DNA of 64,000 nucleotides from Malacoraja senta (Eukaryota): the NCBI GenBank assembly GCA_038087875.1, contig CM075994.1, forward strand, positions 744,001 through 808,000, read 5' to 3'. The notes under the pieces are model-generated. The model had not been told where the DNA came from. It saw only the letters and a list, made by a program, of their open reading frames with translations, and made no database searches. Position numbers and translations under genes: made by a program. Below, piece by piece: positions 6,326 to 61,005 of the stretch (position 1 is the stretch's first letter; the number at the start of each line of letters is the position of its first letter).

Positions 6326-6351
6326 TATATTCTATCCAGGGTAAGGGGAGT

Positions 6352-11320: not shown

Positions 11321-14300
11321 TCAGGTTCCTCGTACATCTTTCCCCCTCACCTTAACACCTATGCACAGAGCAGCGAAGGGGAACGTGAGCAGGGCGTTCA
11401 ACTGCGCTCTGAACCTGCTCTGGGTGAGGGCGTACACACAGGTGTTTGTGCAGGAACCGAGGCACTTCAGCAACATCGCGACTTGCACGGCCGCGTACAG
11501 CGAGCGGGGGCCGCGGAACATCACCGTCGCGCTCACCCCGACCCAGGCGTGGATCACCGTGATGGGAACGGCCAGCGCCACGAAGCTCCCGGAGACGGCG
11601 AACAGCGGGGCGACCGAAGCCCTCCGGCTCCTGACCTCGGGGTCGTTGCCCCCGCCCACCTGGCAAGAGCTCTTCAAAGCCAGTCGGGCCCTGCTGGCCC
11701 CTAGAATGTGTCTGGCGGTCAGCGAATTCAGAAGCAGCAGGGCGGGGATGGGGAGGAGGGTGTTGAGGAGGAAGGAGGCCCAGCGATGGGCGGACCACAG
11801 CGGGGATTCCAGGTGACCCGGCACAGGGCAGCAACCGTAGGCCACACGGTGAACGGTGAAACAGGGCCGGTAGCGGAGAGGCCAGGGCGCGTTCGTCAAC
11901 ACACTGACCATTCCTACCGCCGCTAGCACCATGGCCGCCGTTCTCTCGGTGCAATACGTGCGCCTGAGCTTCCGGCAACAGATAGCCACGAAACGGTCAC
12001 ACGTGAAGGTCACGGTGAACCAGGTATTGAGCTGGAAACTGAAGCCTTGCAGGTAGGCACTGAGCCGGCACACGGGCGTGTAGCGGAGCGGAGACCCGGG
12101 GAAGTGGTACCTGAAAGGACAAGTAACCTCGGGGTGACTCAGCGGGTCGGGCAGCGGCTCGTGAAAGAAAAATAGATACAAAACGCTGGATGTAACTCAG
12201 CGGGTCAGGCAGCAAATGGAGGAAAGATAAACACAAAACGCTGGAATAACACAGCGGGTCGGCACGGTGGCGCAGCGGTAGAGTTGCTGCCAGAGACCCG
12301 GGTTCGATTGTGACTACGGGTGCAGTCTGCCCGGAGATTGGCCGTTCTCCCCGTGACATCGTGGGTATTCTCCGGGTGCCCAAGCTTTCCTCTAACTTTT
12401 GCAATCAGACCAGTGGAGTGTGGGAGCAATCCGGAGCACCTGGATAAAACCCACGCAGTCACAGGCAGAAGGTTCATACTACACACAGACACACCAAAGT
12501 CAGAGTCGAACCCAGGTCTTTAGTGCTGTGCGGGGAACAGGAGCGGGGAAGCGTGGGAAGAGAGAGGGGTGGTGTGGGGTAGAATTGAATGGGCTTTGCG
12601 GGAGGTTGGTGAAAGGTTACCTAAAATCGGAGTATTCAATGTTCATACCGTTGGGTTGTAAGATGCTGTTGCTCCAGTTTGCGTGTGGCCTCACTCTGGC
12701 AGTGAAGGAGGCCCAGGATAAAAAAAGGTAAGTGTGGTAACGGGAAGGGAATTGTTAAAAACCGGGAGATCTAGCAGGTCTTGGCGAACCGAGCGCAAGT
12801 GTTCGGCGAAATTTTCGCCCAGTCTACACATTGTCTTGCCGATGTCCAGGAGGCCACATCGGGAACTGGGATATCTCCCGGTGGCCAAACACCCGACCAG
12901 TCTGACTGTCCCTTTGATTAAATATTTATCTCTCTTTGCTTCGTTGTCCACTTCCCCGAGCTAACACTGGTCCATTCTACATTTCCCTTGATCAGAATAC
13001 CACTTAACCCCCCACCCCCCTTCCCAAATCTTTGCACATCCCCAAACCTTTCCATTCGTCACTTTAATTTAATGTATCTTGTTTTTTTTATGACTGTTAG
13101 CAGAATACTTCCCCTCCTGGGATTAGTAAAGTTCTATCGTATTGTATGGTAACAGCGTCCCATTTGATGTCTCGTTTTCACACCTTTCCTTTTCATATCT
13201 CTGCGTGTCCCCCTCCACTGACTCTCAGTCTGAAGAAGGCTCTCGACCCGAAACGTCACCCATTCTTTCTATCCGCAGATGCTGCCTGTCCCGCCGCGTT
13301 ACTCCAGCATTTTGTGCCTATCTTCGGCGTAAACCAGCATCTGCAGTTCCTTCCTACACATGCAGTAGATGAGGTTGGAGCAGGTATCCAGTACGTACCT
13401 GACTATCTGGCTGACTATGACGTTGAAGACCAACACCATGAGATCACCCATCGCCATGGCCATCATGTAGCAGGTAATGTCTTTGGAGAGACCGCACTTT
13501 CCTCGAAACAGGATCACCAAGGACATCAAGTTGGCTGTAAGGAAACACACAACGGCGAGAAGCAAGAGGGAAATGGTATAGAGGCGTAGGGGACTGCATC
13601 TGTAGGGAACGGCAATAAATGTAACCAGAATTTCAGCAGTCCTGAACTACTTTCTACCTCATTGGTGACACTCGGACCATGTGTGACCGGACTTTGATGG
13701 CTTTACCTTGCACTGAACGTCATTCCCTTATCGTGTATATGTACACTGGAAATGGCTCGATTGTAATCGCGATTTCCGCTGACTGGTTCGCACGCAACAA
13801 AAGCTTTTCACTGTACCTCGGTACACGTGATAATGAACTAAATTCAACTGAACTGAATACGATCCAAGTCATTTGGGTATTTCTTAACCGGAGATTGACA
13901 GGCTCTTGATCAATAAGGTTGTTAAAGGATTGGGGGAAAAGGCAGGAGAATGGGGGTGATCAGGGGAAGATAGATCAGCCATGACTGAATGTTACAGTAG
14001 ACTTGACGGGCTCTTCACATTCACTCCATCCAGGCCATACACAACACCCGAGGTCAGGACTGAACCCAGGTCTTTTGCGATGTGAATCAGCAACTCTCCC
14101 TCTGCGCCACGGTGCTACACCTAATTTTAGACAATAAGAGTGAAAACAGGCCATTCGGCCCGTCGGGCCTGCGCAGACCAGCGACTACCTGCCCAATGTT
14201 AGAAGCAATCCGTCTTCCCTTAGCATTGAAACCAAGATTACAAGAGTGAACAATCTCATCGTTGCCCTGACTCTGACCACTGACTGGCACAATGGATGCA

Positions 14301-14850
14301 GAGAAATCAACTGCAGCCAAAAACAATGAAGAGACATAGAAGGATTCAACCTCCGGTATTCCAGAGAATACAATCCAAGTCTGTCCGACTTCTCCTTGTA
14401 GCTGATTCCCGCTAAAGCAGGCATCATTCTGGTAAGATGCACAAAAATGCTGGATTAACTCAGTGGGTCAGACAGCATATCTGGAGAGAAGGAATAAGTG
14501 ACATTTCGGGTCGAGACCTTTATTTCAGACCAGTAAGGAGAAAAGAAAACGAGAGATATAGTCGGTGATAGAGAGAGATAAAGAGCAAATGAATGAAAGC
14601 TATGCATAAAGTAACGATGATCAAGGAAATGGAGAGCCCATGATGGCCCATTGTAGGACGAGGGCTAGGTGATAACGAGTTATACAGACAGTGAAACTCA
14701 ATAAGACGACAGTGAAACTAGTACGACAACTAGGGTGGGGGAGGGACGGAGAGAAAACCACCGCTACATTAAATGAAATGACTTACCTGGCACACCAATG
14801 ACTGCAATAATCGGGTAGAAGATCTCGATGTGAAGTACGTACGTTCCCAT
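11321..14850 (-). CDS. GPR139/GPR142-like class A GPCR, copy A, intact 329 aa; complement(join(11321..12110,13399..13534,14787..14850))
   Basis: Spliced by hand: MGTYVLHIEIFYPIIAVIGVP|ANLMSLVILFRGKCGLSKDITCYMMAMAMGDLMVLVFNVIVSQIVR|YHFPG...WFTVTFTCDRFVAICC...SCTNTCVYALTQSRFR. GT-AG introns with phases 1 and 2 match; total 990 nt. Motifs GxPAN, AxxD, DRF and NxxxY resemble GPR139. Confidence 0.9.
12261..12530. mobile_element. Two convergent tRNA-derived SINE fragments in intron 2 (plus ~12261-12400, minus ~12414-12530); repeated in each unit
   Basis: A-box TGGCGCAGCGG and B-box GGTTCGATT on plus; B-box GGTTCGACTC on minus. Confidence 0.7.
12600..13390. mobile_element. Penelope-like fragments (GIY-YIG C-terminus and terminal repeat) in intron 2; repeated in each unit
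   Basis: Minus-strand SRCGLLDIGKT..RLGENFAEHLRSV and GLLHCQSEATRKLE; plus-strand terminal motif CTGAAGAAGG..CGACCCGAAACGTC...GATGCTGCC. Confidence 0.75.
13630..14740. mobile_element. TE relics in intron 1: LINE 3' ends, a minus-strand SINE head (~14040-14117), a CR1 RT scrap and a Penelope terminal segment (~14440-14740, minus)
   Basis: Recognisable tails (AACTGAACTGAA), A/B boxes, the GISYKEKSDRLGLYSLEYRRL peptide and a degenerate Penelope terminus. Confidence 0.55.
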
Positions 14851-14874
14851 CCTCTGGTGAACGGAGGCGCTCTA

Positions 14875-14908
14875 TGAATGGGGTGCTTTGGAAACGGAAG
14901 GATTTATA
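14875..14908 (-). promoter_or_regulatory. TATA box plus initiator-like element of GPCR copy A (equivalent motif upstream of all five copies)
   Basis: Minus-strand TATAAAT at 14908-14902. CCATTC with its A at 14879 lies 29 nt downstream of the first T. The ATG at 14850 is in a good Kozak context (AGGATGG). Confidence 0.65.
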
Positions 14909-19964: not shown

Positions 19965-20570
19965 GTCATAACAAGAGGAGTCGAGTATAGGAGCAAAGAG
20001 GTCCTTCTGCAGTGGTACAGGGCACTAGTGAGACGACACCTGGAGTATTGTGAGCAGTTTTGGTCCCCTTATTTGAGGAAGGAAATTCTTGCTATTGAGG
20101 GAGTGCAGCGTAGGTATACAATGTTAATTCCCGGGTTGGCGGGAGTGTCATATGCTCAGAGAATGGTGCGGCTGTGCTTGTATACTCTGGAATTTAGATG
20201 AGAGGGGATCTTATTGAAACATATAAGATTATTAAGGGTTTGGACATGCTAGAGGCAGGACACATGTTGGGGGAGTCCAATACCAGGGGCCACAGTTTAA
20301 GACTGAGGGGTAAGCCATTTAGAACGGAGACGAGAAAACACCTTTTCACACAGAGAGCTGTGATTCTGTGGAATTCTCTGCCTGTGGAGGCTGGTTCTCT
20401 GGATACTGTCAAGAGAAAGCTAGATCGGGCTCTTAAAGATAGCGGAGTCAGGGGATATGGTGAGAAGGCAGGAACGGAGAACTGAATGGGGATGTTCAGC
20501 CATGGTCACTTTGAATGGCGGTGCTAGCTCGACGGGCCGAATGGCCCACTCCTGCGTCTATTCTCTATAG
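19965..20570 (+). mobile_element. CR1 3' fragment (unit copy)
   Basis: Paralog of 3410-4010. Confidence 0.87.
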
Positions 20571-20725: not shown

Positions 20726-22110
20726 AATGGCTCAATGGTTCATTGGTTCAATGGCTCTATGGTTCAACGATTCAATGGCTCAATGGTTCAGTGGCTTAAT
20801 GGCTAAATGGCTCAATGGCTCAATGACTCTATGGTTCAACGATTCAATGGCTCAATGGTTCAATGGCTCAATGGCTCAATGGTTCAATGATTCAATGATT
20901 CAATGATTCAATGGCTCAATGGCTCAATGATTCAATGATTCCATATTTCTCAATGATTCAATGCCTCAATGGTTCAATGATTCAATTATTTAATGGTTCA
21001 ATGGTTCAATGGTTCAATGATTCAATGATTCAATGATTCAGTGAATCAATCGTTCAATGGCTCAATGGCTCAACGGTTCAACGGTTCAATGATTCAATGG
21101 TTCAATGAATCAATCGTTCAATGGCTCAATGGCTCAATGGCTCAACGGTTCAATGATTCAATGATTCAATGATTCAATGATTCAATGGCGCAATGGTTCA
21201 ATGGTTCAATGGTTCAATGGCTCAATGGTTCAATGATTCAATGATTCAAAATGTCTCAATGATTCAATGATTCAACGATTCCATGATTCTATGGTTCAAT
21301 GGTTCGATGTTTAGATGGCTCAATGATACAATTGTTCAATGATTCGATGGTCCAATAATTCGATGATTCAATGGTTCAATGGTTCAATGGCTCAATGGCT
21401 CAATGGCTCAATGGCTCAACGGTTCAATGGTTCAACGATTCAATGGTTCAATGATTCATTGGCTCAATGATTCAATGGTTCTGTGGTTCAATGATTCAAT
21501 TAATGTTATTTACTCCGTGCAGACGAGATTTCTCCCCGCTTCGAATGGACACAATGAGAACAGAGTTTGTGATCAACCAGATTAAAGGACAAATGGCTCA
21601 ATGATTCAATGGTTCAATGGCTCAATCGTTCAATGGTTCAATGATTCAGTGGCTCAATCGTTCAATGATTCAATGATTCCTTGTTTCAATGGTTCAATGG
21701 CTTATGGTCTGCGTGCAGGTAGATGGGACTAGGTGAGAGTAAGTGTTCGGCACGGACTACAAGGGCCGAGATGGCCTGTTTCCGTGCTGTAATTTTATAT
21801 GGTTAAATGGTTATAATGGTTTAATGGTTGAATGATTCAATGGTTCAATGGCTTATTGGTTCAATGGCTCAATAATCCAATGAGTCAATGATTCAATGAT
21901 TCAAAGGCTCAATAGTTCAATGGTTCAATGGCTCATTGGTTCAATGATTCAATGGCTCAATGGTTCAATGATTGAATGGCTCAATGGCTCAATGGCTGAC
22001 TGGTTCAATGATTCAAGGGTTCAATGGCTGAATGGTTGAATGATTCAATGGTTCAATGATTCAATGATTCAATGGTTGAATGATTCAATGGTTCAATGAT
22101 TCAATGATGA
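20726..22110. repeat. Octamer YTCAATGR minisatellite
   Basis: Read directly from the sequence. Confidence 0.96.
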
Positions 22111-22890
22111 TCTAATTCATTTTTTTATTTAATGTGGAACAATAAAAGAGTCTATCTGTGTCCCTAGTAGAAGCATGCAGTAGGAATAATTTCGTTTTGT
22201 TTGTTGTCACGTTAACGGAGGTACAGTTAAAACTTTTTGTTGCGTGCTAACCAGTCAGCGGAAAGACAATACATGCTTGCAATGGAGCCGTCCACATTGT
22301 ACAGATACACGATAAGGGAATAACGTTTCGTGCAAGGTTAATCCAGTAAATTCCGGTAAAAAATAGTCCGACGGTCACCAATGAGGTAGATAGTAATTTA
22401 GCACTGCTCACTGGTTGTGGTAGGATGCTTCAGTTTCTTGATAACAGTTGGGAAGGAACTATCCCTGAAACTTGAGGTGTGTGTTTTCATATTTCTTTAC
22501 ATTTTGCTCGATGGGAGAGGGGAGAAAAGGGGAGAGAGGAGAACTCCCTATTCTCTAATTGGCAATTTGGAGAGTCCAATTATCCTACAAAAATTTTAGG
22601 TTGTGGAAGGAAATGCAGCACCGAGAGGAAACCCACGCGGCAACATAGAGATTAGATGATCTTGCCATCGTGTTTGGCACGGTCATTGTGGCACGGACAT
22701 TATGTTCCAGTGTTAAGTTCCAAGTTCTAAGTGCAGGACATAGGGTTAATTATCAAAACGTTTGAGAAACATTTATACACGTACATGGGTCGGACAGGTT
22801 TGGAGGGATATGGACCAAATGCAGGCAGGTGGGACTAGTGTAGACGGAGCATGGTGGCCATTGTGAGCAAGTTTGGCTGAAGGGTACCCC

Positions 22891-25800
22891 TCAGGTTCCT
22901 CGTACATCTTTCCCCCTCACCTTAACACCTGTGCACAGAGCAGCGAAGGGGGACGTGAGCAGGGTGTTCAACTGCGCTCTGAACCTGCTCTGGGTGAGCG
23001 CGTACACACAGGTGTTTGTGCAGTAACCGAGGCACTTCAGCAACATCGCGACTTGCACGGCCGCGTACAGCGAGCGGGGGCCGAGGAACATCACCGTCGC
23101 GCGCACCCTGACCCAGGCTTGGATCACCGTGATGGGAACGGCCAGCGCCACGAAGCTCCCGGAGACGGCGAACAGCAGGGCGACCGACGCCCTCCGGCTC
23201 CTGACCTCGGGGTCGTCGCCCCCGCCCCCCTGGCAAGAGCCCTTCAAGGCCAGTCGGGCCCTGCTCGCCCCTATGATGTGTCTGGCGGTCAGCGAATTCA
23301 GCAGCAGCAGGGCGGGGATGGGGAGGAAGGTGTTGAGGAGGTTGGAGGTCCAGCGATGGGCGGACCACAGCAGGGATTCCAGGTGACCCGGCACAGGGCA
23401 GCAACCGTAGGCCACACGGTGAACGGTGTGACAGGGCCGGTAGCGGAGAGGCAAGGGCGCGTTCGTCAACACACTGACCATTCCTACCGCCGCTAGCACC
23501 ATGGCCGCCGTTCTCTCGGTGCAATACGTGCGCCTCAGCTTCCGGCAACAGATAGCCACGAAACGGTCACACGTGAAGAACACGGTGAACCAGGTATTGA
23601 GCTGGAAACTGAAGCCTTGCAAGTAGGCACTGAGCCGGCACACGAGCGTGTAGCGGAGCGGAGACCCGGGGAAGTGGTACCTGAAAGGACAAGAAACGCC
23701 GGGGTGACTCAGCGGGGCAGGCAGCGGCTCTGGAAAGAAAATAGATACAAAACGCTGGATGTAACTCAGCGGGTCAGGCAGCAAATGGAGGAAAGATAAA
23801 CACAAAACGCTGGAATAACGCAGCGGGTCGGCACGGTGGCGCAGCGGTAGAGTTGCTGCCAGAGATCCGGGTTCGATTCTGACTACGGGTGCAGTCTGCC
23901 CGGAGATTGGCCGTTCTCCCCGTGACATCGTGGGTATTCTCCGGGTGCCCAAGGTTTCCTCTAACTTTTGCAATCAGACCAGTGGAGTGTGGGAGCAATC
24001 CGGAGCATCCGGATAAAACCCACGCAGTCACAGGCAGAATGTTCATACTACACACAGACACACCAAAGTCAGAGTCGAACCCAGGTCTTTAGTGCTGTGC
24101 AGGGAACAGGAGCGGGGAGGCGTGGGAAGAGAGAGGGGTGGTGTGGGGTAGAATGGAATGGGCTTTGGGGGAGGTTGGTGAAAGGTTACCTAAAATCGGA
24201 GTATTCAATGTTCATACCGTTGGGTTGTAAGATGCTATTCCTGCAATTTGCGTGTGGCCTCACTCTGGCAGTGAAGGAGGCCCAGGATAAAAGGCCAGAG
24301 CGGTAACGGGAAGGGAATGGTTAAAAACCGGGAGATCCAGCAGGTCTTGGCGGACCGAGCGCAAGAGTTCGGCGAAATTTTCGCCCAGTCTACACATTGT
24401 CTTGCCGATGTCCAGGAGGCCACATCGGGAACTGGGATATCTCCCGGTGGCCAAATACTTTTACTCCTCCTCCCATTCGCACACGTACCCATTCTGTCAG
24501 GGGCCTCCTCCATTGTCAGAGTGAGGCCCAGCGCAAACAGGAGCAACAGCACCTCGTGTTTCGCTTGGGCAGCTTACACCCCAGCTTGACTTCTCTAACT
24601 CCAAGTGACCCTTGCTTTTCCTCTCTCTCCATCCCATCCTAATTCCCCGACCAGTCTGACTGTCCCTTTGATTAAATATTTATCTCTCTTTGCTTCGTTG
24701 TCCACTTCCCCGAGCTAACAATGGTCCATTCTACTTTTCCCTTGATCAGAATACCTCTTCACCCCAACCCCCCTTCCCAAATCTTTGCACATCCCCAAAC
24801 CTTTCCATTCGTCACTTTAATTTAATGTATCTTGTTTTTTTATGACTGTTAGCAGAATACTTTCCCTCCTGGGATTAGTAAAGTTCTATCGTATTGTATG
24901 GTAGCAGCATCCCATTTGATGTCTCGTTTTCACACCTTTCCTTTTCATATCTCTGCGTGTCCCGCTCCACTGACTCTCAGTCTGAAGAAGGCTCTCGACA
25001 TGAAACCTCACCCATTCTTTCTATCCGCAGATGCTGCCTGTCCCGCCGCGTTACTCCAGCATTTCGTGTCTATCTTCGGCGTAAACCAGCATCTGCAGTT
25101 CCTTCCTACACATGCAGTAGATGAGGTTGGAGCAGGTATCCAGTACGTACCTGACTATCTGGCTGACTATGACGTTGAAGACCAACACCATGAGATCACC
25201 CATCGCCATGGCCATCATGTAGCAGGTGATGTCTTTGGAGAGACCGCACTTTCCTCGAAACAGGATCACCAAGGACATCAAGTTGGCTGTAAGGAAACAC
25301 ACAACGGCGAGAAGCAAGAGGGAAATGGGATAGAGGCGTGGGGACTGCATCTGTAGGGACCGGCAATAAATGTAACAATAATTTCAGCAGTCCTGAACTA
25401 CTTTCTACCTCATTGGTGACACTCGGACCGAGTGTGACCGGACTGATGTCTTTACCTTGCACTGAACGTCATTCCCTTATCATGTATCTGCACACCGGAA
25501 ATGGCTCGATTGTAATCGCGATTTCCGCTGACTGGTTCGCACGCAACAAAAGCGTTTCACTGTACCTCGGTACACGTGATAATGAACTAAATTCAACTGA
25601 ACTGAATACGATCCAAGTCATTTGGGTATTTATTAACCGGAAATTGACAGGCTCTTGATCAATAAGGTTGTTAAAGGATAGGGGGAAAAGGCAGGAGAAT
25701 GGGAGTGATCAGGGGAAGATAGATCAGCCATGACTGAATGTTACAGTAGACTTGACGGGCTCTTCACATTCACTCCATCCAGGCCATACACAACACCCGA

Positions 25801-26603
25801 GGTCAGGACTGAACCCAGGTCTTTTGCGATGTGAGGCAGCAACGCTCCCTCTGCGCCACGGTGCTACACCTAATTTTAGATAATAAGAGTGAAAATAGGC
25901 CATTCGGCCCGTCGGTCCTGCGCAGACCAGCGACTACCTGCCCAATGTTAGAAGCAATCCGTCTTCCCTTAGCATTGAAACCAAGAGCACAAAAGTGAAC
26001 AATCTCATCGTTGCCCTGACTCTGACCACTGACTGGCACAATGGATGCAGAGATATCAACTGCAGCCAAAAACAATGAAGAGACATAGAAGGATTCAACC
26101 TCCGGTATTCCAGAGAAAACAATCCAAGTCTGTCCGACTTCTCCTTGTAGCTGATTCCTGCTAAAGCAGGCATCATTCTGCTAAGAGGCACACAAATGCT
26201 GGATTAACTCAGTGGGTCAGACAGCATCTCTGGAGAGAAGGAATAAGTCACATTTTGGGTCGAGACCTTTATTTCAGACCAGTAAGGAGAAAAGAAAACG
26301 AGAGATATTGTCGGTGATAGAGAGAGATAAAGAGCAAATTAATGAAAGCTATGCATAAAGTAACGATGATCAAGGAAATGGAGAGCCCATGATGGCCCAT
26401 TGTTGGATGAGGGCTAGGTGATAACGAGTTGTACAGACAGTGAAACTCAATAAGACGACAGTGAAACTAGTACGACAACTAGGGTGGGGGAGGGAGGCAC
26501 GGAGAGAAAACCACCGCTACATTAAATTAAATGACTTACCAGGCACACCAATGACTGCAATAATCGGGTAGAAGATCTCGATGTGAAGTGCGTACGTTCC
26601 CAT
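22891..26603 (-). CDS. GPR139/GPR142-like GPCR, copy B, intact; complement(join(22891..23680,25151..25286,26540..26603))
   Basis: Same exon sizes (64/136/790), canonical splice sites and an open reading frame. Confidence 0.9.
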
Positions 26604-26798
26604 CCTCTGATGAAAGGAGGCGCTCTATGAATGGGGTGCTTTGGAAACGGAAGGATTTATACGTGAGGAGATAGTCTCTTGCGACATCCATGTCATTAGC
26701 CAGAGCAAATATTCAACGCAAGGGTTCGCAAAGCAGCACTAATGAGACCTAATGATCCTCAGAGATAACATTGCACTCACAACCACAGTCATTACATC

Positions 26799-29700
26799 AG
26801 ATTCAGATTCAGATTCAACTTTATTGTCATTGTGCAGTCTACAGTATAGAGACAACGAAATGCAGTTAGCATCTCCGTAGAAGAGCGACATAAATATGAG
26901 CAGTAAACAAATAAATCTAATAAATCCTTGTGGGATGAGTGTCCGGGGGTTGGGGGGGGGGGTGATTGGCAGTCACCGAGGTACAGTGTTGAGTAGTGTA
27001 ACCGCCGCAGGGAAGAAGCTGTCCCTGGACCTGCTGGTCCGGCAACGGAGAGACATGTAGCGCCTCCCGGATGGTAGGAGGGTAAACAGTCTGTGGTTGG
27101 GGTGAGAGCAGTCCTTGGCGATGATGAGCGCCCTTCGCAGACAACGCTTGCTTTGGACAGACTCAATGGTGGGGAGTGAGGAAACGGTGATGCGTTGGGC
27201 AATTCTCACCACCCTCTGCAGTGCTTTCCGGTCGGAGACAGAGCAGTTGCCATACCATACTGTGATGCAGTTGGTAAGGATGCTCTCGATGGTGCAGCGG
27301 TAGACGTTCACCAGAATCTGAGGAGACAGATGGACCTTCTTTAGTCTCCTCAGGAAGAAGAAACGCTGGTGAGCCTTCTTGACCAGAGTTGAGGTATTGT
27401 CGGTCCAAGAGAGGTCATCGGAGATGTTGACCCCCAGGAACCTGAAGCTGGAAACACGTTCCACCTCCGTCCCGTTAATGTGGATGGGGGTGTGCGTGCC
27501 GCCCCTAGACTTCCTGAAGTCTACAATGAGCTCCTTGGTCTTCTTGGAGTTAAGGGCCAGGTTGTTGTCAGTGCACCACGCTGCTAGGAGCTGGACCTCC
27601 TCCCTATAGGCCGACTCATCGTTGTTGCTGATGAGGCCAATCACCGTTGTATCATCTGCATACTTGATGATGGTATTAGTACCAAGTACAGGTGTGCAGT
27701 CGTAGGTGAAGAGGGAGTAGAGGAGGGGGCTCAGCACACAGCCCTGTGGAACGCCGGTGTTCGGGGTGAGGGTTGAAGAGGTGTGCTTGTCTAACCTAAC
27801 AGACTGGGGTCTGTTGGTTAGAAAGTCCAGTATACAGTTGCAGAGGGAGGGGTCGATGCCCAGGTCACCGAGTTTGGTGATCAGTTTAGAGGGTATGATG
27901 GTGTTGAATGCTGAGCTGTAATCGATCAACAGCATTCTTACGTAAGTGTCTCTGTTGTCGAGGTGGGAGAGGGCGGAGTGAAGTGCCGTTGAGATGGCAT
28001 CCTCCGTACTCCTGTTCTTGCGGTAGGCAAACTGATAGGGATCCAATGTGGGGGGTAGGCAGCCTTTGAGGTGTCCCAGGACCAGCCTCTCGAAGCACTT
28101 GGCGATTATGGGAGAAAGTGCAACTGGTCGGAAGTCGTTGAGGCTCGCCGCAGTGGAGTGTTTTGGCACCGGCACGATGGAGGTGGATTTAAGGCACGTG
28201 GGCACAACTGCTTGGGCAAGTGACAGGTTGAAGATGTCAGTCCAGACGTGTGTCAGCTGCGCAGCACAGGCCCTGAGGACGCGGCCGGGGATGCCATCGG
28301 TGCCAGCAGCCTCACGTGCATTAGTCCTACTCAGTGCCACGTACACGTCGTAGGGGGTGAGTGAGAGGGGCTGGTGATCGGCAGGGAGCGCCGCCTTGAT
28401 GGCCAACTGCCGATTGTCCCTATCGAAGCGGTCATAGAAGTGGTTAAGCTCCTCAAGAAAGGAGGCGTTGCTGGATGTGGGGGTGGTGTTGGTGGGTCTG
28501 AAGCCCGTGATGGCCTGAATGCCTTGCCACATGCGTCGGGAGTCGGAGTTGTTGTTGAAGTGCTCCTCAATCCTGAGCTTATGGCAGTGCTTGGCCTTCT
28601 TTATGCCCTTCTTCAGGTTAGCCCTGGATGAACTATAGGCTCGGGCATCGCCTGACCTGAAAGTGGTGTCCCGTGCTTTCAGCAGTAGCCTGACCTCGCT
28701 GTTCATCCATGGCTTCTGATTCGGGAATATGGTCACCCGTTTGAGGGAGGTGACACTGTTGATGGTGGAGTTTATAAAGTCCAGAACAGAGGATGTATAG
28801 GAGTCAATTTCCGTGTGGGAGTCAAGGGTGGCCTGGGCTGCAAACGCCATCCAGTCAGTGTTTCCAAAACACTGCTGAAGTGTGGAGTCCGCATCTTCTG
28901 ACCAGACTTTAACTGTCCTCACAGTGGGTTTAACCCGTCTGATGAGTGGGGAGTACTTTGGGAGCAGGAACAATGAGAGGTGATCAGACTGTCCAAGGTG
29001 GGGGAGGAGGACGGCTTTGTAAGCTTCAGCCATGTTGGTGTAGACTTTGTCCAGTGTCTTGTCTTCTCTAGTGGCGAAGGAGACATGTTGGTGGAATTTG
29101 GAGAGTGCAGTCTTCAGGTTGGAGTGATTGAAGTCACCCGCAACAATGAAGGCTGCCTCGGGGTTGTGAGTCTGTTGTTTGCTAATGTCAGTATGCAGAT
29201 CTTTCATTGCAAGCTTGGCATTAGCATCAGGAGGAATATAGGCTGCAGTCACAACAGTGGAGGTAAACTCTCTGGGCAGATAGAACGGTCTGCATCTAAC
29301 CAAGAGGAACTCTAGGTTAGCTGAGCAGTGACTCTCGATGATGGTGGTGTCCGTGCACCATGCTTTGTTTACATAAATGCACAGACCTCCACCTCTGGTC
29401 TTACCGGAGTCTATTGTCCTGTCCGCTCGGAGTAAATGCCGCCCCGATAGCTGGATGGCGCTGTCAGGAACGTCGGTGTTGAGCCAAGTTTCAGTGACGA
29501 TCAAGATGCTGCAGTCTTTGATCCAGTTGTGGGGGGGGGGTGATCCTCAGCCGGAGTTCGTCCATTTTGTTTGCCAGTGAGCGCACGTTGGCGAGGAAAA
29601 GGCTAGGAATCGCTAGCCTGTGTGGGACTAGCTCTAACCTGGCCTTTAACCCACCTCTGCGTCCCCGGCGGTGCTTCCGTTCACGTCGCCGTCTGTTGGT

Positions 29701-29803
29701 GCTTCCGGTCGGCCGAGCTGGCTTGGTGGGCGCTGGTGTTCTGCCGCCCCGCGACTCTGCTGGCGTTCTACTAGTTTACTAGTTTAGTTTGGTTAGTGTA
29801 ATC
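26799..29803 (-). mobile_element. Rex1/Babar-type LINE copy upstream of gene B, nearly intact (843-aa ORF 26973..29504; one frameshift in the G run at 29531-29540)
   Basis: Continuous APE-RT ORF with GVPQGCVLSP and YADD; (TGAATC)n tail. Confidence 0.92.
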
Positions 29804-31769
29804 ACTAGTTTAGTTTAGTTAGTGTGCTTTAGTTAATTTAATTTAGTTAGTTTGCTTTAGTTAGTTCACTTTAGTGTATTAGTTTGCTTTAATTAGTTAT
29901 GTTATCATTAATCTAGTTTAGTTTTGTTTTGTTCCATTTCATTATATTTCGTTTAATTTAATTTAGCCAAGTTAGTTTAGTTTAATTTAGTTTAGTTTAA
30001 TTTAGTTTAGTTTAGTCTATTCTAGTGGAATTTAGTTTAGTTTTGAATCGTTTATTTTAGGTTAGTTGAATGATACAGCTCGGAAACTTGATCTGAAACT
30101 TGATCTGAAAAGGCACATCATCACATTCAGGCACAGTTTCTTCCCGGCTGTTATCAGGCAATTGATACACCCTACCATAACCAGAGAGCAGTCCTGAACT
30201 ACTATCTACCCTTTTGGTGACCCTTGGCTTGGTCTATTCTCTATCAGATTTCGATGTCCGGAAGTGGCGGGGCTGCCCAACCAACTGCGGCTCTCCTGCA
30301 GTCCTTTTGTCTTTTCTTTTTTGTGTGTGTTTCTTTTGTCCTGTTGTTTACTTTATTTCGTTTATTTTAGTTGTGTATGTGTGGGGGGATGGGAGAAATT
30401 GTCTTTAGTCTCCTCCTTCAGGGAGGATGCGACCTTTTCTTGTCGTATCCCCCGTCTCCGTCTCCGTCTGCGCTGAGGCCTAATCGCGGAGCTGGCGGCC
30501 TCCAACAGGGACCGACTTCGAGGCTCCGGAGGCAGAGCCAGGACTTACCATCGCGAGGCTGGCGGACTTCGGGGTTGTGGTGGCGGCGACCCGACTACGG
30601 AGCCTCGGAGGCCCCAGTGGACGACAACGTCGGGAGCTCGCAGGTCCCAGGTTGGTGACCGATTCTCCGGAGCTCCCGCAACATCAGCTTCGTCCGCTGG
30701 ACTGGTGGGTGGCAGCTTCGGCAGCTTCGACCGCCCCGGGCCACGGTGTTTGAACCAGCCCGTTCGCGGAGCTCGGTTGCAGCCGCTGGGAGGCCCAACA
30801 CCGGAAGCCTGGATCGCCTCAAAGTAGAGGGAGACGAGGAGGGAAATGACAAGGACTTTAAATTTTTTGCCTTCCATCACAATGAGGAGGTGCCTGGTAG
30901 ACTCACTGTGGTGGATGTTAAACTGTGTTAACTGTGTGTTTTGTTATTTTATTCTATGTTATAACTGCAAGGTATAAAATTTCGCTCAGACTGAAATGTC
31001 TAAATGACAATAAAGGATACTTAAATTGCTTCAACTTAAGACGGTTAAGACGGACTGAGCGGATGTGTTCAACAAAACGATCGCCGAGCCTGCGCTTGGT
31101 CTCGCCGATGTGCGGAGGTTCACACCTGGGACAGCGGATACAGTAGATGAGGTTGTAGGAGATGCAAGTGAACCTCTGCCTCACCTGAAAAGACTGTCGG
31201 GGTGAGGAGGTGCAAATGCAGATGAGGCAGAGGTTGACTGGCATCTCCTCCAACATCATCTACAGGGCCGAGGTTAGATTCCGACTATGGGTGCTGTCTG
31301 TAAGTTCTCCCCTTGACCTGCGCCAGAGATGTTCGGTTTCCTCCCACACTCCAAAGACGTACAGGTAGGTAGGTTAATTGGCTTGGTAGAAATGTAAATT
31401 GTCCCTAGTGTGTGCGGGATCGTGTCAACGTGCGGGTATCGTTGGTCGGCACGGACTCGGTGGGCCGAAGGGCCTGTTCCGCGCTGCATCTCTAAACGAA
31501 ACTAAATAAAACGAAGCTAAAACTAAACGTTAGTGACGCCAAATGTATTAATGGCAAGTCTGTATGTATTGGATGTATAATGGTAATAACAGCGAGCATG
31601 TCAAATGGTCTGCCTATCGTCTTCTGAAACCTCAAGGAGCGGAGTTCAAAGGTAGGGAACATGAATAGGTTGACAACAGGTACTAACTGGCACCGTATTT
31701 TAATGTATTGATGAATTGTACACTTTCAAAACCTTTTGGGATATCCACATGACTCAGGGTGTTCTCTAG

Positions 31770-32372
31770 TCATGACAAGAGGAGTCGAGTATAGGAGCAA
31801 AGAGGTCCTTCTGCAGTGGTACAGGGCACTAGTGAGACGACACCTGGTGTATTGTGAGCAGTTTTGGTCCCCTTATTTGAGGAAGGAAATTCTTGCTATT
31901 GAGGGAGTGCAGCGTAGGTATACAAGGTTAATTCCCGCGATGGCGGGACTGTCATATGCTGATAGAATGGTGCGGCTGGGCTTGTATACTCTGGAATTTA
32001 GATGAGAGGGGTTCTTATTGAAACATATAAGATTATTAAGGGTTTGGACATGCTAGAGGCAGGACACATGTTGGGGGAGTCCAGAACCAGGGGCCACAGT
32101 TTAAGACTGAGGGGTAAGCCATTTAGAACGGAGACGAGAAAACACCTTTTCACACAGAGAGCTGTGATTCTGTGGAATTCTCTGCCTGTGGAGGCTGGTT
32201 CTCTGGATACTGTCAAGAGAAAGCTAGATCGGGCTCTTAAAGATAGCGGAGTCAGGGGATATGGTGAGAAGGCAGGAACGGAGTACTGATTGGGGATGAT
32301 CAGCCATGGTCACATTGAATGGCGGTGCTAGCACGACGGACCGAATGGCCCACTCCTGCGTCTATTCTCTAT
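31770..32372 (+). mobile_element. CR1 3' fragment (unit copy)
   Basis: Paralog of 3410-4010. Confidence 0.87.
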
Positions 32373-32528
32373 AGAAACATTGAAATAATATTCCATTTCG
32401 TGTCCCGTTGTGAAACAGTGAATTCAGTGACTGCAATTTATGTTATTTACTCCGTGCAGACGAGATTTCGCCCCGCTTCGAATGGACCCAATGAGAACAA
32501 AGTTTGTGATCAACCAGATTAAAGAACA

Positions 32529-45483: not shown

Positions 45484-48400
45484 TCAGGTTCCTCGTACAT
45501 CTTTCCCCCTCACCTTAACACCTATGCACAGAGCAGTGAAGGGGGACGTGAGCAGGGCGTTCAACTCCACTCTGAACCTGCTCTGGGTGAGGGCGTACAC
45601 ACAGGTGTTTGTGCAGGAACCGAGGCACTTCAGCAACATCGCGACTTGCACGGCCGCGTACAGCGAGCGGGGGCCGCGGAACATCACCGTCGCGCTCACC
45701 CCCACCCAGGCGTGGATCACCGTGATGGGAACGGCTAGCGCCACGAAGCTCCCGGAGACGGCGAACAGCAGGGCGACGGAAGCCCTCCGGCTCCTGACCT
45801 CGGGGTCGTCGCCCCCGCCCCCCTGGCAAGAGCCCTTCAAGGCCAGTCGGGCCCTGCTAGCCCCTAGGACGTGTCTGGCGGTCAGCGAATTCAGCAGCAG
45901 CAGGGCGGGGATGGGGAGGAAGGTGTTGAGGAGGTTGGAGGTCCAGCGATGGGCGGACCACAGCGGGGATTCCAGGTGACCCGGCACAGGGCAGCAACCG
46001 TAGGCCACACGGTGAACGGTGTGACAGGGCCGGTAGCGGAGAGGCCAGGGCGCGTTCGTCAACACACTGACCATTCCTACCGCCGCTAGCACCATGGCCG
46101 CGGTTCTCTCGGTGCAATACGTGCGCCTCAGCTTCCGGCAACAGATAGCCACGAAACGGTCACACGTGAAGGCCACGGTGAACCAGGTATTGAGCTGGAA
46201 ACTGAAGCCTTGCAGGTAGGCACTGAGCCGGCACACGGGCGTGTAGCGGAGCGGAGACCCGGGGAAGTGTTACCTGAATGGACAAGAAACGCCGGGGTGA
46301 CTCAGCGGGTCAGGCAGCGGCTCTGGAAAGAAAAATAGATACAAAACGCTGGATGTAACTCAGCGGGTCAGGCAGCAAATGGAGGAAAGATAAACACAAA
46401 ACGCTGGAGTAACGCAGCGGTCGGCACGGTGGCGCAGCGGTAGAGTTGCTGTCAGAGACCCGGGTTCGATTCTGACTACGGGTGCAGTCTGCCCGGAGAT
46501 TGGCCGTTCTCCCCGTGACATCGTGGGTATTCTCCGGGTGCCCAAGGTTTCCTCTAACTTTTGCAATCAGACCAGTGGAGTGTGGGAGCAATCCGGAGCA
46601 TTTGGATAAAACCCACGCAGTCACAGGCAGAATGTTCATACTACACACAGACACACCAAAGTCAGAGTCGAACCCAGGTCTTTAGTGCTGTGCGGGGAAC
46701 AGGAGCGGGGAAGCGTGGGAAGAGAGAGGGGTGGTGTGGGGTAGAATGGAATGGGCTTTGCGGGAGGTTGGTGAAAGGTTACCTATAATCGGAGTATTCA
46801 ATGTTCATACCGTTGGGTTGTAAGATGCTGTTGCTCCAGTTTGCGTGTGGCCTCACTCTGGCAGTGAAGGAGGCCCAGGATAAAAAAAGGTCAGTGCGGT
46901 AACGGGAAGGGAACGGTTAAAAACCGGGAGATCCAGCAGGTCTTGGCGGACCGAGCGCAAGTGTCCGGCGAAATTTTCGCCCAGTCTACACATTGTCTTG
47001 CCGATGTCCAGGAGGCCACATCGGGAACTGGGATATCTCCCGGTGGCCAAACACCTTTACTCCTCCTCCCATTCGCACACGTACCCATTCTGTCAGGGGC
47101 CTCCTCCATTGTCAGAGTGAGGGCCAACGCAAACAGGAGCAACAGCACCTCGTGTTTCGCTTGGGCAGCTTACACCCCAGCTTGACTTCTCTAACTCCAA
47201 GTGACCCTTGCTTTTCCTCTCTCTCCATCCCATCCTAATTCCCCGACCAGTCTGACTGTCCCTTTGATTAAATATTTATCTCTCTTTGATTCGTTGTCCA
47301 CTTCCCCGAGCTAACAATGGTCCATTCTACTTTTCCCTTGATCAGAATACCACTTCACCCCCCACCCCCCTTCCCAAATCTTTGCACATCCCCAAACCTT
47401 TCTATTCGTCACTTTAATTTAATGTATCTTGTTTTTTTTATGACTGTTAGCAGAATACTTTCCCTCCTAGGTTTATTAAAGTTCTATCGTATTGTATGGT
47501 AACAGCGTCCCATTTGATGTCTCGTTTTCACACCTTTCCTTTTCATATCTCTGCGTGTCCCCCTCCACTGACTCTCAGTCTGAAGAAGGCTCTCGACCCG
47601 AAACGTCACCCATTCTTTCTATCCGCAGATGCTGCCTGTCCCGCCGCGTTACTCCAGCATTTTGTGTCTATCTTCGGCGTAAACCAGCATCTGCAGTTCC
47701 TTCCTACACATGCAGTAGATGAGGTTGGAGCAGGTATCCAGTACGTACCTGACTATCTGGCTGACTATGACGTTGAAGACCAACACCATGAGATCACCCA
47801 TCGCCATGGCCATCATGTAGCAGGTGATGTCTTTGGAGAGACCGCACTTTCCTCGAAACAGGATCACCAAGGACATCAAGTTGGCTGTAAGGAAACACAC
47901 AACGGCGAGAAGCAAGAGGGAAATGGGATAGAGGCGTAGGGGACTGCATCTGTAGGGAACGGCAATAAATGTAACCAGAATTTCAGCAGTCCTGACCTAC
48001 TATCTACCTCATTGGTGACACTCGGACCATGTGTGACCGGACTTTGATGGCTTTACCTTGCACTGAACGTCATTTCCTTATCATGTATCTGTACACTGGA
48101 AATGGCTCGATTGTAATCGCGATTTCCGCGGACTGGTTAGCACGCAACAAAAGCGTTTCACTGTACCTCGGTACACGTGATAATGAACTAAATTCAACTG
48201 AACTGAATACGATCCAAGTCATTTGGGTATTTCTTAACCGGAGATTGACAGGCTCTTGATCAATAAGGTTGTTAAAGGATAGGGGGAAAAGGCAGGAGAA
48301 TGGGGGTGATCAGGGGAAGATAGATCAGCCATGACTGAATGTTACAGTAGACTTGACGGGCTCTTCACATTCACTCCATCCAGGCCATACACAACACCCG

Positions 48401-49199
48401 AGGTCAGGACTGAACCCAGGTCTTTTGCGATGTGAGGCAGCAACTCTCCCTCTGCGCCACGGTGCTAACCTAATTTTAGACAATAAGAGTGAAAACAGGC
48501 CATTCGGCCCGTCGGGTCTGCGCAGACCAGCGACTACCTGCCCAATGTTAGAAGCAATCCGTCTTCCCTTAGCATTGAAACCAAGAGCACAAAAGTGAAC
48601 AATCTCATCGTTGCCCTGACTCTGACCACTGACTGGCACAATGGATGCAGAGAAATCAACTGCAGCCAAAAACAATGAAGAGACATAGAAGGATTCAACC
48701 TCCGGTATTCCAGAGAAAACAATCCAAGTCTGTCCGACTTCTCCTTGTAGCTGATTCCCGCTAAAGCAGGCATCATTCTGGTAAGAGGCACAAAAATGCT
48801 GGATTAACTCAGTGGGTCAGACAGCATCTCTGGAGAGAAGGAATAAGTGACATTTCGGGTCGAGACCTTTATTTCAGACCAGTAAGGAGAAAAGAAAACG
48901 AAAGATATAGTCGGTGATAGAGAGAGATAAAGAGCAAATGAATGAAAGCTATGCATAAAGTAACGATGATCAATGAAATGGAGAGCCCATGATGGCCCAT
49001 TGTTGGATGAGGGCTAGGTGATAACGAGTTATACAGACAGTGAAACTCAATAAGACGACAGTGAAACTAGTACGACAACTAGGGTGGGGGAGGGACGGAG
49101 AGAAAACCACCGCTACATTAAATGAAATGACTTACCAGGCACACCAATGACTGCAATAATCGGGTAGAAGGTCTCGATGTGAAGTGCGTACGTTCCCAT
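45484..49199 (-). pseudogene. GPR139-like GPCR copy D, nonsense allele; exons 49136..49199, 47749..47884, 45484..46273
   Basis: The first full codon of exon 3 is TAA (plus-strand tta at 46270-46272) where the other copies have TAC (Y68*). The rest of the frame is open. Confidence 0.83.
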
Positions 49200-57277: not shown

Positions 57278-60200
57278 TCAGGTTCCTCGGACATCTTTCC
57301 CCCTCACCTTAACACCTATGCACAGAGCAGCGAAGGGGGACGTGAGCAGGGCGTTCAACTGTGCTCTGAACCTGCTCTGGGTGAGGGCGTACACACAGGT
57401 GTTTGTGCAGGAACCGAGGCACTTCAGCAACATCGCGACTTGCACGGCCGCGTACAGCGAGCGGGGGCCGCGGAACATCACCGTCGTGCTCACCCCGACC
57501 CAGGCGTGGATCACCGTGATGGGAACGGACAGCGCCACGAAGCTCCCGGAGACGGCGAACAGCAGGACGACCGACGCCCTCCGGCTCCTGACCTCGGGGT
57601 CGTTGCCCCCGCCCACCTGGCAAGAGCCCTTCAAGGCCAGTCGGGCCCTGCTGGCCCCTAGAATGTGTCTGGCGGTCAGCGAATTCAGAAGCAGCAGGGC
57701 GGGAATGGGGAGGAGGGTGTTGAGGAGGAAGGAGGCCCAGCGATGGACGGACCACAGCGGGTATTCCAGGTGACCCGGCAAAAGGCAGCAATCGTAGGCC
57801 ACACGGTGAACGGTGAAACAGGGCCGGTAGCGGAGAGGCAAGGGCGCGTTCGTCAACACGCTGACCATTCCTACCGCCGCTAGCACCATGGCCGCGGTTC
57901 TCTCGGTGCAATAAGTGCGCCTCAGCATCCGGCAACAGATAGCCACGAAACGGTCACACGTGAAGGACACGGTGAACCATGTATTGAGCTGGAAACTGAA
58001 GCCTTGCAGGTAGGCACTGAGCCGGCACACGGGCGTGTAGCGGAGCGGAGACCCGGGGAAGTGGTACCTGAAAGGACAAGTAACCTCGGGGTGACTCAGC
58101 GGGTCAGGCAGCGGCTCTGGAAAGAAAAATAGATATACAAAACGCTGGATGTAACTCAGCGGGTCAGGCAGCAAATGGAGGAAAGATAAACACAAAACGC
58201 TGGAGTAACGTAGCGGGTCGGCACGGTGGCGCAGCGGTAGAGTTGCTGCCAGAGTCCCGGGTTCGATTCTGACTACGGGTGCAGTCTGCCCGGAGATTGT
58301 CCGTTCTCCCCGTGACATCGTGGGTATTCTCCGGGTGCCCAAGGTTTCCTCTAACTTTTGCAATCAGACTAGTGGAGAGTGGGAGCAATCCGGAGCACCT
58401 GGATAAAACCCACGCAGTCACATGCAGAATCTTCATACTACACACAGACACACCAAAGTCAGAGTCGAACCCAGGTCTTTAGTGCTGTGCGGGGACAGGA
58501 GCGGGGAGGCGTGGGAAGAGAGAGGGGTGGTGTGGGGTAGAATGGAATGGGCTTTGCGGGAGGTTGGTGAAAGGTTACCTAAAATCGGAGTATTCAATGT
58601 TCATACCGTTGGGTTGTAAGATGCTGTTCCTCCAGTTTGCGTGTGGCCTCACTCTGGCAGTGAAGGAGGCCCAGGATTTTAAAAAAAAAGGTCAGTGTGG
58701 TAACGGGAAGGGAATGGTTAAAAACCGGGAGATCCAGCAGGTCTTGGCGGACCGAGCGCAAGTGTTCGGCGAAATTTTCGCCCAGTCTACACATTGTGTT
58801 GTCGATGTCCAGGAGGCCACATCGGGAACTGGGATATCTCCCGGTGGCCAAACACTTTTACTCCTCCTCCCATTCGCACACCTACCCATTCTGTCAGGGG
58901 CCTCCTCCATTGTCAGAGTGAGGCCCAGCGCAAACAGGAGCAACAGCACCTCGTGTTTCGCTTGGGCAGCTTACACCCCAGCTTGACTTCTCTAACTCCA
59001 AGTGACCCTTGCTTTTCCTCTCTCTCCATCCCATCCTAATTCCCCGACCAGTCTGACTGTCCCTTTGATTAAATATTTCTCTCTCTTTGCTTCGTTGTCC
59101 TCTTCCCCGAGCTAACAATGGTCCATTCCACTTTTCCCTTGGTCAGAATACCACTTCACCCCCACCCCCCTTCCCAAATCTTTGCACATCCCCAAACCTT
59201 TCCATTCGTCACTTTAATTTAATGTATCTTGTTTTTTTTATGACTGTTAGCAGAATATTTCCCTCCTGGGATTAGTAAAGTTCTATCGTATTGTATGGTA
59301 ACAGCGTCCCATTTGATGTCTCGTTTTCACCCCTTTATTTTTCATATCTCTGCGTGTCCCCCTCCACTGTCTCTCAGTCTGAAGAAGGCTCTCGACCCGA
59401 AACGTCACCCATTCTTTCTATCACCAGATGCTGCCTGTCCCGCCGCGTTACTCCAGCATTTTGTGTCTATCTTCGGCGTAAACCAGCATCTGCAGTTCCT
59501 TCCTACACATGCAGTAGAAGAGGTTGGAGCAGGTATCCAGTACGTACCTGACTATCTGGCTGACTATGACGTTGAAGACCAACACCATGAGATCACCCAT
59601 CGCCATGGCCATCATGTAGCAGGTGATTTCTTTGGAGAGACCGCACTTTCCTCGAAACAGGATCAACAAGGACATCAAGTTGGCTGTAAGGAAACACACA
59701 ACGGCGAGAAGCAAGAGGGAAATGGGACAGAGGCGTAGGGGACTGCATCTGTAGGGAACGGCAATAAAAGTAACCAGAATTTCAGCAGTCCTGAACTACT
59801 TTCTACCTCATTGGTGACACTCGGACCATGTGTGACCGGACTTTGATGGCTTTACCTTGCACTTAACGTCATTCCCTTATCATGTATCTGTACACTGGAA
59901 ATGGCTCGATTGTAATCTTGTATTGTATTTCCGCTGACTGGTTAGCACGCAACAAAAGCTTTTCACTGTACCTCAGTACACGTGATAATGAACTAAATTC
60001 AACTGAACTGAATACGATCCAAGTCATTTGGGTATTTCTTAACCGGAGATTGACAGGCTCTTGATCAATAAGGTTGTTAAAGGATAGGGGGAAAAGGCAG
60101 GAGAATGGGGGTGATCAGGGAAGATAGATCAGCGATGACTGAATGTTACAGTAGACTTGACGGACTCTTCACATTCACTCCATCCAGCCCATACACAACA

Positions 60201-61005
60201 CCCGAGGTCAGGACTGAACCCAGGTCTTTTGCAATATGAGGCAGCAACTCTCCCTCTGCGCCACGGTGCTAACCTAATTTTAGACAATAAGAGTGAAAAC
60301 AGGCCATTCGGCCCGTCGGGTCTGCGCAGACCAGCGACTAACTGCCCAATGTTAGAAGCAATCCGTCTTCCCTTAGCCTTGAAACCAAGAGCACAAAAGT
60401 GGATAATCTCATCGTTGCCCTGACTCTGACCACTGACTGGCACAATGGATGCAGAGAAATCAACTGCAGCCAAAAACAATGAAGAGACATAGAAGGTCTC
60501 CATTCAACCTCCGGTATTCCAGAGAAAACAATCCAAGTCTGTCCGACTTCTCCTTGTAGCTGATTCCCGCTCAAGCAGGCAACATTCTGCTAAGAGGCAC
60601 AAAAATGCTGGATTAACTCAGTGGGTCAGACAGCATCTCTGGAGAGAAGGAATAAGTGGCATTTCGGGTCGAGACCTTTAGTTCAGACCAGTAAGGAGAA
60701 AAGAAAACGAGAGATATAGTCGGTGATAGAGAGATAAAGAGCAAATGAATGAAAGCTATGCATAAAGTAACGATGATCAAGGAAATGGAGAGCCCATGAT
60801 GGCCCATTGTTGGATGAGGGCTAGGTGATAACGAGTTATACAGACAGTGAAACTCAATAAGACGACAGTGAAACTAGTACGACAACTAGGGTGGGGGAGG
60901 GACGGAGAGAAACCACCGCTACATTAAATGAAATGACTTACCAGGCACACCAATGACTGCAATAATCGGGTAGAAGATCTCGATGTGAAGTGCGTACGTT
61001 CCCAT
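57278..61005 (-). CDS. GPR139/GPR142-like GPCR, copy E, intact; complement(join(57278..58067,59548..59683,60942..61005))
   Basis: Same exon sizes, canonical splice sites and an open reading frame. Confidence 0.9.

Follow-up and report, generated by a model that had tools for sequence, protein, structure and literature searches.

The 64,000-nucleotide stretch of the Malacoraja senta genome analysed here (contig CM075994.1, positions 744,001 to 808,000; the window, below) carries a tandem array of five genes for class A G-protein-coupled receptors (GPCRs), which belong to a large, GPR139-related receptor family of cartilaginous fishes. We regard the array and the placement of the family as close to certain. 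Judged from sequence comparison, the family is probably a functional repertoire with many ligands; that these ligands are chemosensory cues, with a chemosensory or luminal role for the receptors, is a possibility that we put slightly below even. Whether the window is best described as the recent tandem multiplication of a single member of a chondrichthyan GPR139-related, ligand-diversified sensing repertoire is in our view evenly balanced.

All five genes lie on the minus strand and have three exons of 64, 136 and 790 nt, GT-AG introns in phases 1 and 2, and 329 codons (Table 1). The exons of copy 1, used as queries, found exactly five matches apiece in the window, and the genes recur in tandem units of 11.1-11.8 kb with ATG-to-ATG distances of 11753, 11514, 11082 and 11806 nt. 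Copies 1, 2 and 5 are intact in the sense that their frames are open. Copies 3 and 4 are broken: the deletion in copy 3 takes codons 104-110, including the DRF motif, and the lesion in copy 4 is a TAC>TAA change (46272-46270). Exon models and lesion mapping thus agree with an earlier note on this DNA, which had described five three-exon seven-transmembrane genes, three of them open and two with different single lesions. The spliced model has the support of matching annotated proteins from skates: P0001 (Rhinoraja, 329 aa) begins and ends as the model does and is 87% identical over exon 3, and P0002 (Leucoraja) is 89% identical. A reading in which exon 2 is a stand-alone 115-aa open reading frame (ORF) and exon 3 has an intronic extension was ruled out, since the skate proteins fit the spliced model. 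Intron 2 of copy 1 is shorter by 188 nt through a deletion. Base composition differs along the gene, exon 3 (11321-12110 and equivalents) being 64% G+C with 69 CpG and the introns and first two exons 46-51% G+C.

The TATA box and initiator that had been proposed for each gene are present in all five. The first T of a TATAAA lies 58 nt upstream of every ATG, an initiator-like word (BBCABW) follows 29 nt past that T, and the start codons have a strong Kozak context. The paired pattern occurs six times in the 64-kb window, five of these at receptor genes, where the sites are copies of one event and mark predicted promoters. A canonical AATAAA was not found within 900 nt after any of the five stop codons; possible polyadenylation signals are TATAAA at +114 in all five copies and ATTAAA at +758 in three. 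In the structure model of P0001, transmembrane helix 1 (TM1) runs from residue 7; N1.50 falls at residue 23. None of the three open proteins contains an N-x-S/T sequon at any position, in agreement with the short, sequon-free N-terminus noted earlier.

To place the genes we searched for homologues of exon 3 and obtained 105 proteins. All 104 that were named are chondrichthyan, from 21 species including one chimaera, and most carry the automatic label 'probable GPR139'. Other automatic names in the family are wrong (melatonin, opioid, capa, cephalotocin, C5a, P2Y6 and vasopressin V2 receptor-like), and such names would conceal the family from name-based counts. Horn shark accounts for 24 of the 105 clusters, two of which expand to 15 listed members each, all from horn shark (15/15 and 15/15); the distinct proteins annotated in this species come to about 50 or more, and isoforms or haplotype duplicates may be counted among them. 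A profile search of 50%-identity clusters gave 142 representatives at E<=1e-30, many of them fragments, and all ten divergent representatives and two top ones that were looked up are chondrichthyan. The subfamily of the window has multiplied elsewhere, with four consecutive-accession proteins in Rhinoraja and 15 in Heterodontus. The family had been thought lineage-specific, which is correct for this array only, the family itself being old and chondrichthyan-wide; the proposed multigene birth-and-death evolution is evident in tandem paralogues, pseudogenes and species-specific clades.

The proteins are recognizably class A receptors. The 7tm_1 profile matched exon 3 alone at 34.6 bits (cut-off 30.5) and P0001 at 65 bits, and a Pfam scan of 60 family members returned 7tm_1 in all 60, Srx in six and TAS2R in one, with no Srw hit and no olfactory or vomeronasal receptor model among them. 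The P0001 model has seven helices and helix 8 (predicted local distance difference test score, pLDDT, 89.5), and a fold search matched class A receptors, the closest being peptide receptors. Class A marks are present at N23 (N1.50), D52 (D2.50), C81/C160 (C3.25 and extracellular loop 2, ECL2), DRF and P187 (P5.50). Departures include A or S at 6.48, T at 7.50 (NTxxY, throughout the family) and N in place of S3.39 in all five copies.

The nearest outsiders to the family are salamander, coelacanth, teleost, frog and amphioxus proteins. Further searches sorted these into a lineage A (coelacanth, bony fish, amphibians and reptiles, with shark orthologues), a lineage B (amphibians) and a lineage C (ray-finned fish). 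In a 75-row tree the chondrichthyan family formed one clade (support 100/99) that was sister to lineage B (100/99). A 27-row mixture-model tree kept this sister relation (99/99) and left the deeper order unsettled. Grouping the family with lineage A instead, an alternative named after the first tree had been seen, was rejected (approximately unbiased test, p-AU 0.011). The copies of the window group in one clade (95/95) and the four Rhinoraja copies in another (96/95), and the arrays therefore arose or were homogenised separately. The short N-terminus, in which no sequon was found in 41 short shark N-termini or in 24 other rows, is common to lineages A, B, C and amphioxus; on this distribution it is ancestral to the group and not the special trait that it had seemed. 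Lineage A (P0210, P0276, P0319 and P0374) is a conserved non-mammalian GPR139-like gene found from sharks to reptiles, and the annotation of two of its hits as isoforms of TMEM183A suggests that this gene could serve as a synteny marker.

Since true GPR139 and GPR142 are missing from the trees (the homologue searches returned neither, and there is none among the 492 proteins collected), the position of the family relative to them rests on PDB searches. Human GPR139 was the top PDB match for the family profile (78 vs 59 bits for the next, chemokine receptors) and for P0001 (48 vs 42 bits), as it was for lineage B (53 bits), lineage A (70 bits, coelacanth) and the amphioxus set. It was not found in the PDB search with exon 3 alone, and ranked 13th by fold, in a search that does not discriminate among class A receptors. 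That no solved structure matches better in sequence than human GPR139, and that the database name is 'probable GPR139', could be taken to mean that the copies are amplified GPR139/GPR142 co-orthologues sensing tryptophan and phenylalanine. We consider this very improbable. The 48 bits of P0001 fall below the 70 bits of coelacanth lineage A, and true GPR139 orthologues are reported to be 70-96% identical, with a gene of two exons (PMC7318219; this and the papers below are cited for excerpts of their text), compared to three coding exons and five copies here in place of a single one. Agonist and Trp/Phe action at GPR139 needs F109, H187, W241 and N271, with R244 a modelled polar anchor (PMC5430874). 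In the printed alignments F109, H187, W241, R244 and N271 align to G89, S179, A247, I250 and M279, so that all five residues of the aromatic pocket (F3.33, H5.43, W6.48, R6.51 and N7.38) are replaced, 6.48 being S in copy 5. Lineages A and C keep R6.51 and D7.35, and lineage B keeps F3.33, W6.48 and N7.38. A further difference is the TM3 cysteine, present in the family and missing from the aligned GPR139. Because the family is without the aromatic-amino-acid pocket of GPR139, activation by Trp or Phe is unlikely. By alignment and tree, the family is a paralogous lineage of its own with an amphibian gene as its sister, and not a set of GPR139/142 orthologues. The GPR139 neighbourhood first ascribed to these genes is supported by the top PDB matches.

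Evidence for a repertoire comes from where the family varies. With 17 pocket positions chosen by generic numbering, mean identity across 101 family proteins was 0.67 for the inner half, 0.36 for the outer half and 0.26 for the pocket; the corresponding values were 0.68, 0.63 and 0.76 in lineage A, 0.75, 0.82 and 0.98 in lineage B and 0.79, 0.78 and 0.87 in lineage C. At a matched inner identity of 0.6-0.7, in pairs that are not independent, pocket identity was 0.19 in the family vs 0.74, 0.98 and 0.72 in A, B and C. The 101 proteins have 80 distinct eight-residue pocket strings, compared to one in 22 proteins of lineage B. Among 78 members, taken from sharks, rays and a chimaera, signalling residues are fixed or nearly so (R3.50 in 78, P5.50 and N7.49 in 77 each), and 76 of the 78 keep both disulfide cysteines. 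The subfamily of the window has one pocket type from horn shark to skates, which in the five copies reads Q3.32, G3.33, Q3.37, I6.51, Q7.35 and M7.38. Subfamilies appear to differ in specificity, and the copies of an array appear to have the same one; the pocket pattern is likely that of a ligand-diversified repertoire. The receptor-repertoire-like evolution that the earlier note had suggested is therefore seen in the family, as a conserved inner face with pockets that vary between subfamilies; of ligand diversification within this array there is no sign, constraint being weak and one pocket occurring in five copies. Lineage B (P0202, P0329 and relatives), with its pocket invariant in 22 of 22 proteins and an unusual S1.50 and N2.50, is suggested as a simple model for the family's ancestral ligand.

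A history that would fit these patterns begins with a GPR139-group receptor already present before the split of sharks and bony fish. Its G-protein face would have been kept (LSRGKCGLS in intracellular loop 1, DRFxAIC, DPExxxRRKS in intracellular loop 3 (ICL3), and N7.49-Y7.53), subfamilies would have gained different pockets, and all would couple to a common G protein through the conserved inner face. The sensed ligands may be external or gut-lumen small molecules or short peptides. Unequal crossing-over, probably aided by the satellite spacers and LINE (long interspersed nuclear element) pieces that the units have in common, would add and remove near-identical copies. Because the five copies have one pocket, their number would raise the dose or redundancy of a single specificity and would not provide five, and the copies would be drifting.

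A chemosensory or luminal role would be favoured on several grounds. One is that similar expansions from the FMRFamide-receptor clade, nematode srw among other invertebrate examples, are chemoreceptor candidates. These belong to the same broad clade, and the Srw model (PF10324) occurs in neighbouring Atlas clusters and in some lineage A and C hits; unlike them, the shark family expanded independently and its scanned members lack Srw. Another is that the ligands proposed for the wider clade are aromatic amino acids and peptides (PMC8557429). A third is that known shark chemoreceptor repertoires are small (PMC11979771), the catshark olfactory repertoire consisting of 34 V2R/OlfC and 4-9 in each other family (PMC10116579). 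The boldest form of this proposal, an unrecognised vertebrate chemoreceptor family from the GPR139/FMRFamide-receptor clade that would rank first or second in size among the chemosensory repertoires of cartilaginous fishes, we hold to be doubtful.

Apart from the gap in the trees noted above, several observations weigh against a ligand-diversified sensing repertoire. The pocket comparison is an unequal one, setting paralogues against orthologues, and pocket divergence points to different ligands or lost constraint and not to a site of action. Within the array, coding divergence between pairs of copies (2.7-5.3%) is as high as that of introns (1.5-3.7%), pairwise ratios of replacement to silent change (dN/dS) are 0.39-0.84, and 57 replacement changes were observed compared to 64 expected under neutrality with correction for mutation class (z=-1.7). 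All five copies carry S3.39N (codon 95, exon 3) in a column where 99% of the family have S. Enrichment of variation in the outer half was absent from the seven young sets tested, two of which are overlapping window sets (best p=0.062), and there is thus no sign of current diversifying selection. Finally, nearly all catshark olfactory neurons are Go/TRPC2 cells with robust V2R expression (PMC10116579); smell would need no other family, since V2Rs may suffice for shark olfactory neurons.

Further features of the array bear on its age and constraint. Copy 1 has its L235P change in a column that is L in every aligned family member, and copies 2 and 5 also carry private changes at conserved sites. 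Indels number one in 990 coding columns and 27 in 3596 non-coding columns, a contrast that is overstated because many of the non-coding indels are 1-nt changes, and one stop codon was seen where non-coding rates predict about 2.6; fewer frame-breaking events than predicted suggests some past constraint. The 50 informative sites show 16 adjacent matches (p=0.0003), a clustering into mosaic tracts that indicates conversion or unequal exchange among copies. The array is young, homogenised by sequence exchange and weakly constrained. The S3.39N change falls at the sodium-site position, which is serine in both skate relatives.

Other functions and fates can be weighed against a sensing repertoire of chemosensory receptors. 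One would place the family on leukocytes, skin or gut as an immune or barrier-tissue repertoire for microbial or damage-derived peptides, like the formyl-peptide receptors (FPRs) and MRGPRs, families in which a variable pocket likewise goes with a conserved inner face and turnover of tandem copies. We find this unlikely: the shark family is not akin to chemokine receptors, FPRs or MRGPRs (59 bits for chemokine receptors vs 78 for GPR139), the N-terminus is neither acidic nor glycosylated, and young arrays lack the mark of rapid diversifying selection. MAS1-related receptors are, all the same, described as absent from cartilaginous fishes, which leaves a niche (PMC8455134). The ligands could also be endogenous peptides or metabolites in neuroendocrine or reproductive signalling, the receptors having diversified with a ligand family or been amplified for dose. 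In keeping with this, the wider clade holds the protostome MIP, FMRFamide and myosuppressin receptors, and aromatic-peptide ligands have been proposed for it (PMC8557429). The Atlas neighbours are FMRFamide-receptor-like clusters, and the closest folds are peptide receptors. Such receptors in this group nevertheless keep their pocket fixed (0.76-0.98 in A, B and C), at odds with the many pocket strings of the family, and no matching expanded peptide family is known, which makes an endogenous ligand set rather improbable.

Genomic drift asks for no ligand at all. Satellite- and LINE-driven segmental amplification would have left most extra copies, here and in the family, as non-functional passengers, and near-neutral change within the array, the two broken copies of five, the alteration of the other three at conserved sites, and a mostly repeat-derived unit with variable satellite spacers all agree with it. 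Extended to the whole family this is quite unlikely, given signalling residues that are invariant or nearly so, a subfamily pocket kept from horn shark to skates and, with the reservation already made, the scarcity of coding indels. For the extra copies of this array drift is plausible, with chances about equal either way, and for the family it is not. That the array is an assembly artefact is extremely improbable. The units are 93-96% alike and, among the contigs listed, none spans a whole receptor gene; against this, the units are set apart by substitutions in the thousands, by spacer length and by insertions and deletions peculiar to single units, and clusters of this kind also occur in related species. 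In two DNA-like public runs, one of which may be the source sample, 27 of 27 checked differences from copy 1 are alleles of other window copies, two of them private to copy 3; the 27 are those outside high-copy repeats among 40 listed, of at least 89 in total. Both contig sets run continuously over exons and introns, crossing exon-intron borders as DNA would, and no joint among those listed matches either intron. Exon depths in the two runs (~440-1600 and 28-97) were not used as copy numbers. The contigs carry a non-proline allele at the L235P site of copy 1, and this change may therefore be rare or an error. The earlier note had named an artefact as an outcome that would undo its reading; unit differences and public-run alleles speak for a real array.

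Compared with known systems, the family resembles human GPR139 (PDB 7VUG) and GPR142 as class A receptors of the same deuterostome group, beside the protostome receptors mentioned above (PMC8557429), and differs from them in its low match, changed pocket, TM3-ECL2 cysteine pair, three exons and multigene organization. Members of amphibian lineage B, such as XP_069092602.1 of Pleurodeles and XP_031757816.1 of Xenopus tropicalis ('probable GPR139'), share the DPE motif of ICL3, the short N-terminus and both cysteines with their shark sister family. Unlike it, they have about one gene per species among the matches and a single pocket string, and a sequon in ECL2 is found in seven of seven compared to eight of 78 in the shark family. 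Rinne et al. 2019 named related, unannotated fish and coelacanth orphans near GPR139/142 as GPR210, and 'shark' does not occur in the excerpts of that paper (PMC6504862). Lineages A and C may be GPR210A/B; in sharks, a lineage A orthologue exists apart from the expanded family. The OR, TAAR/TARL, V1R, V2R and T2R families likewise have tandem clusters, pseudogenes, species-specific copies, a variable pocket and a short N-terminus. Membership in any of these was rejected on the Pfam scan described above, the shark family being of other ancestry and having coding introns.

The receptor genes themselves are not new, as they are already in databases under the automatic name, and systems of this kind are known; an origin from the GPR139-related clade in vertebrates is the new part. 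Literature searches, with most subscription journals outside their coverage, found no paper describing the expansion, and the family is apparently old, large and undescribed as such. Cartilaginous fishes have been described as poor in GPCRs and olfactory receptors (PMC8455134, PMC10116579). The whale shark paper stresses this paucity of GPCRs, with no occurrence of GPR139 in its excerpts (PMC8455134), and a skate and blue shark genome paper removed families above 100 copies before its expansion analysis (PMC12361510). The proteins annotated in one shark outnumber the catshark V2Rs, and such a family with its hypervariable pocket would change the GPCR count whatever the tissue of expression. 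If the chemoreceptor reading is true, a repertoire hidden under 'probable GPR139' and missing from current counts would explain the good chemical sensing of sharks and skates despite few known receptors. No fewer than four further lineages of vertebrates go under the 'GPR139' label in databases, a point that matters when the name is used in transcriptomes of fish and amphibians. The window array itself is an ordinary young segmental amplification, and its value lies in the family that it exposed.

Table 1. Coordinates of the receptor genes, repeat units and mobile element in the window
Feature	Position	Strand	Remarks or basis
Receptor copy 1	11321..14850; exons 14850-14787, 13534-13399, 12110-11321	-	open 329 aa; private L235P in TM6
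Receptor copy 2	22891..26603; exons 26603-26540, 25286-25151, 23680-22891	-	open 329 aa; private P79L, P170L, L203I, S286Y
Receptor copy 3 (pseudogene)	34412..38117; exons 38117-38054, 36797-36662, 35182-34412	-	19-nt deletion, frameshift
Receptor copy 4 (pseudogene)	45484..49199; exons 49199-49136, 47884-47749, 46273-45484	-	nonsense codon 68
Receptor copy 5	57278..61005; exons 61005-60942, 59683-59548, 58067-57278	-	open 329 aa; private K114M, G159D, S169Y, A174V
Predicted promoter of copy 1, TATAAA and initiator-like word	14874..14908	-	pattern search
Same predicted promoter arrangement, other copies	first T at 26661, 38175, 49257, 61063	-	pattern search
One complete tandem unit: gene, decayed LINE and SINE (short interspersed nuclear element) pieces, satellite spacer	22029..33550	.	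self-comparison
(AATGGTTC)n spacer at unit junction	20726..22106	.	repeat analysis
(AATGGTTC)n spacer, further junctions	4156-5510, 32529-33627, 44042-44699, 55095-56491, 63895-64000	.	repeat analysis
Upstream part of further unit	1..5513	.	matches 16509-22090
Unit sequence running off right edge	61198..64000	.	matches 17994-20825
CR1-like LINE	5506..10511	+	open ORF1 6316-7284 (GDSL-like), open ORF2 7092-10400 (endonuclease and reverse transcriptase)

In the self-comparison of the window, units aligned at 93-95% over up to 14 kb, with long blocks at 94-96%. A (AATGGTTC)n satellite stands at every unit junction, 658-1397 nt long where complete, and is a candidate substrate for unequal crossing-over. 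Unit sequence extends to both edges of the window, as had been claimed of the array; the gene of the leftmost unit would sit to the left of the window, and further gene copies, likely beyond both edges, are a projection from this unit sequence. From the last unit (near 61200), ~2.9 kb of the decayed LINE that lies upstream of the other genes has been deleted. This deletion has its junction at a 4-nt microhomology, and the other end of the element was left in place. The CR1-like LINE was inserted once, in the spacer left of copy 1 and outside the repeated unit, and the insertion is likely young. The element is apparently full-length, with a 5' end of 6.9 tandem copies of a 91-bp repeat, an ORF1 for a GDSL-like esterase and an ORF2 of 1103 aa.

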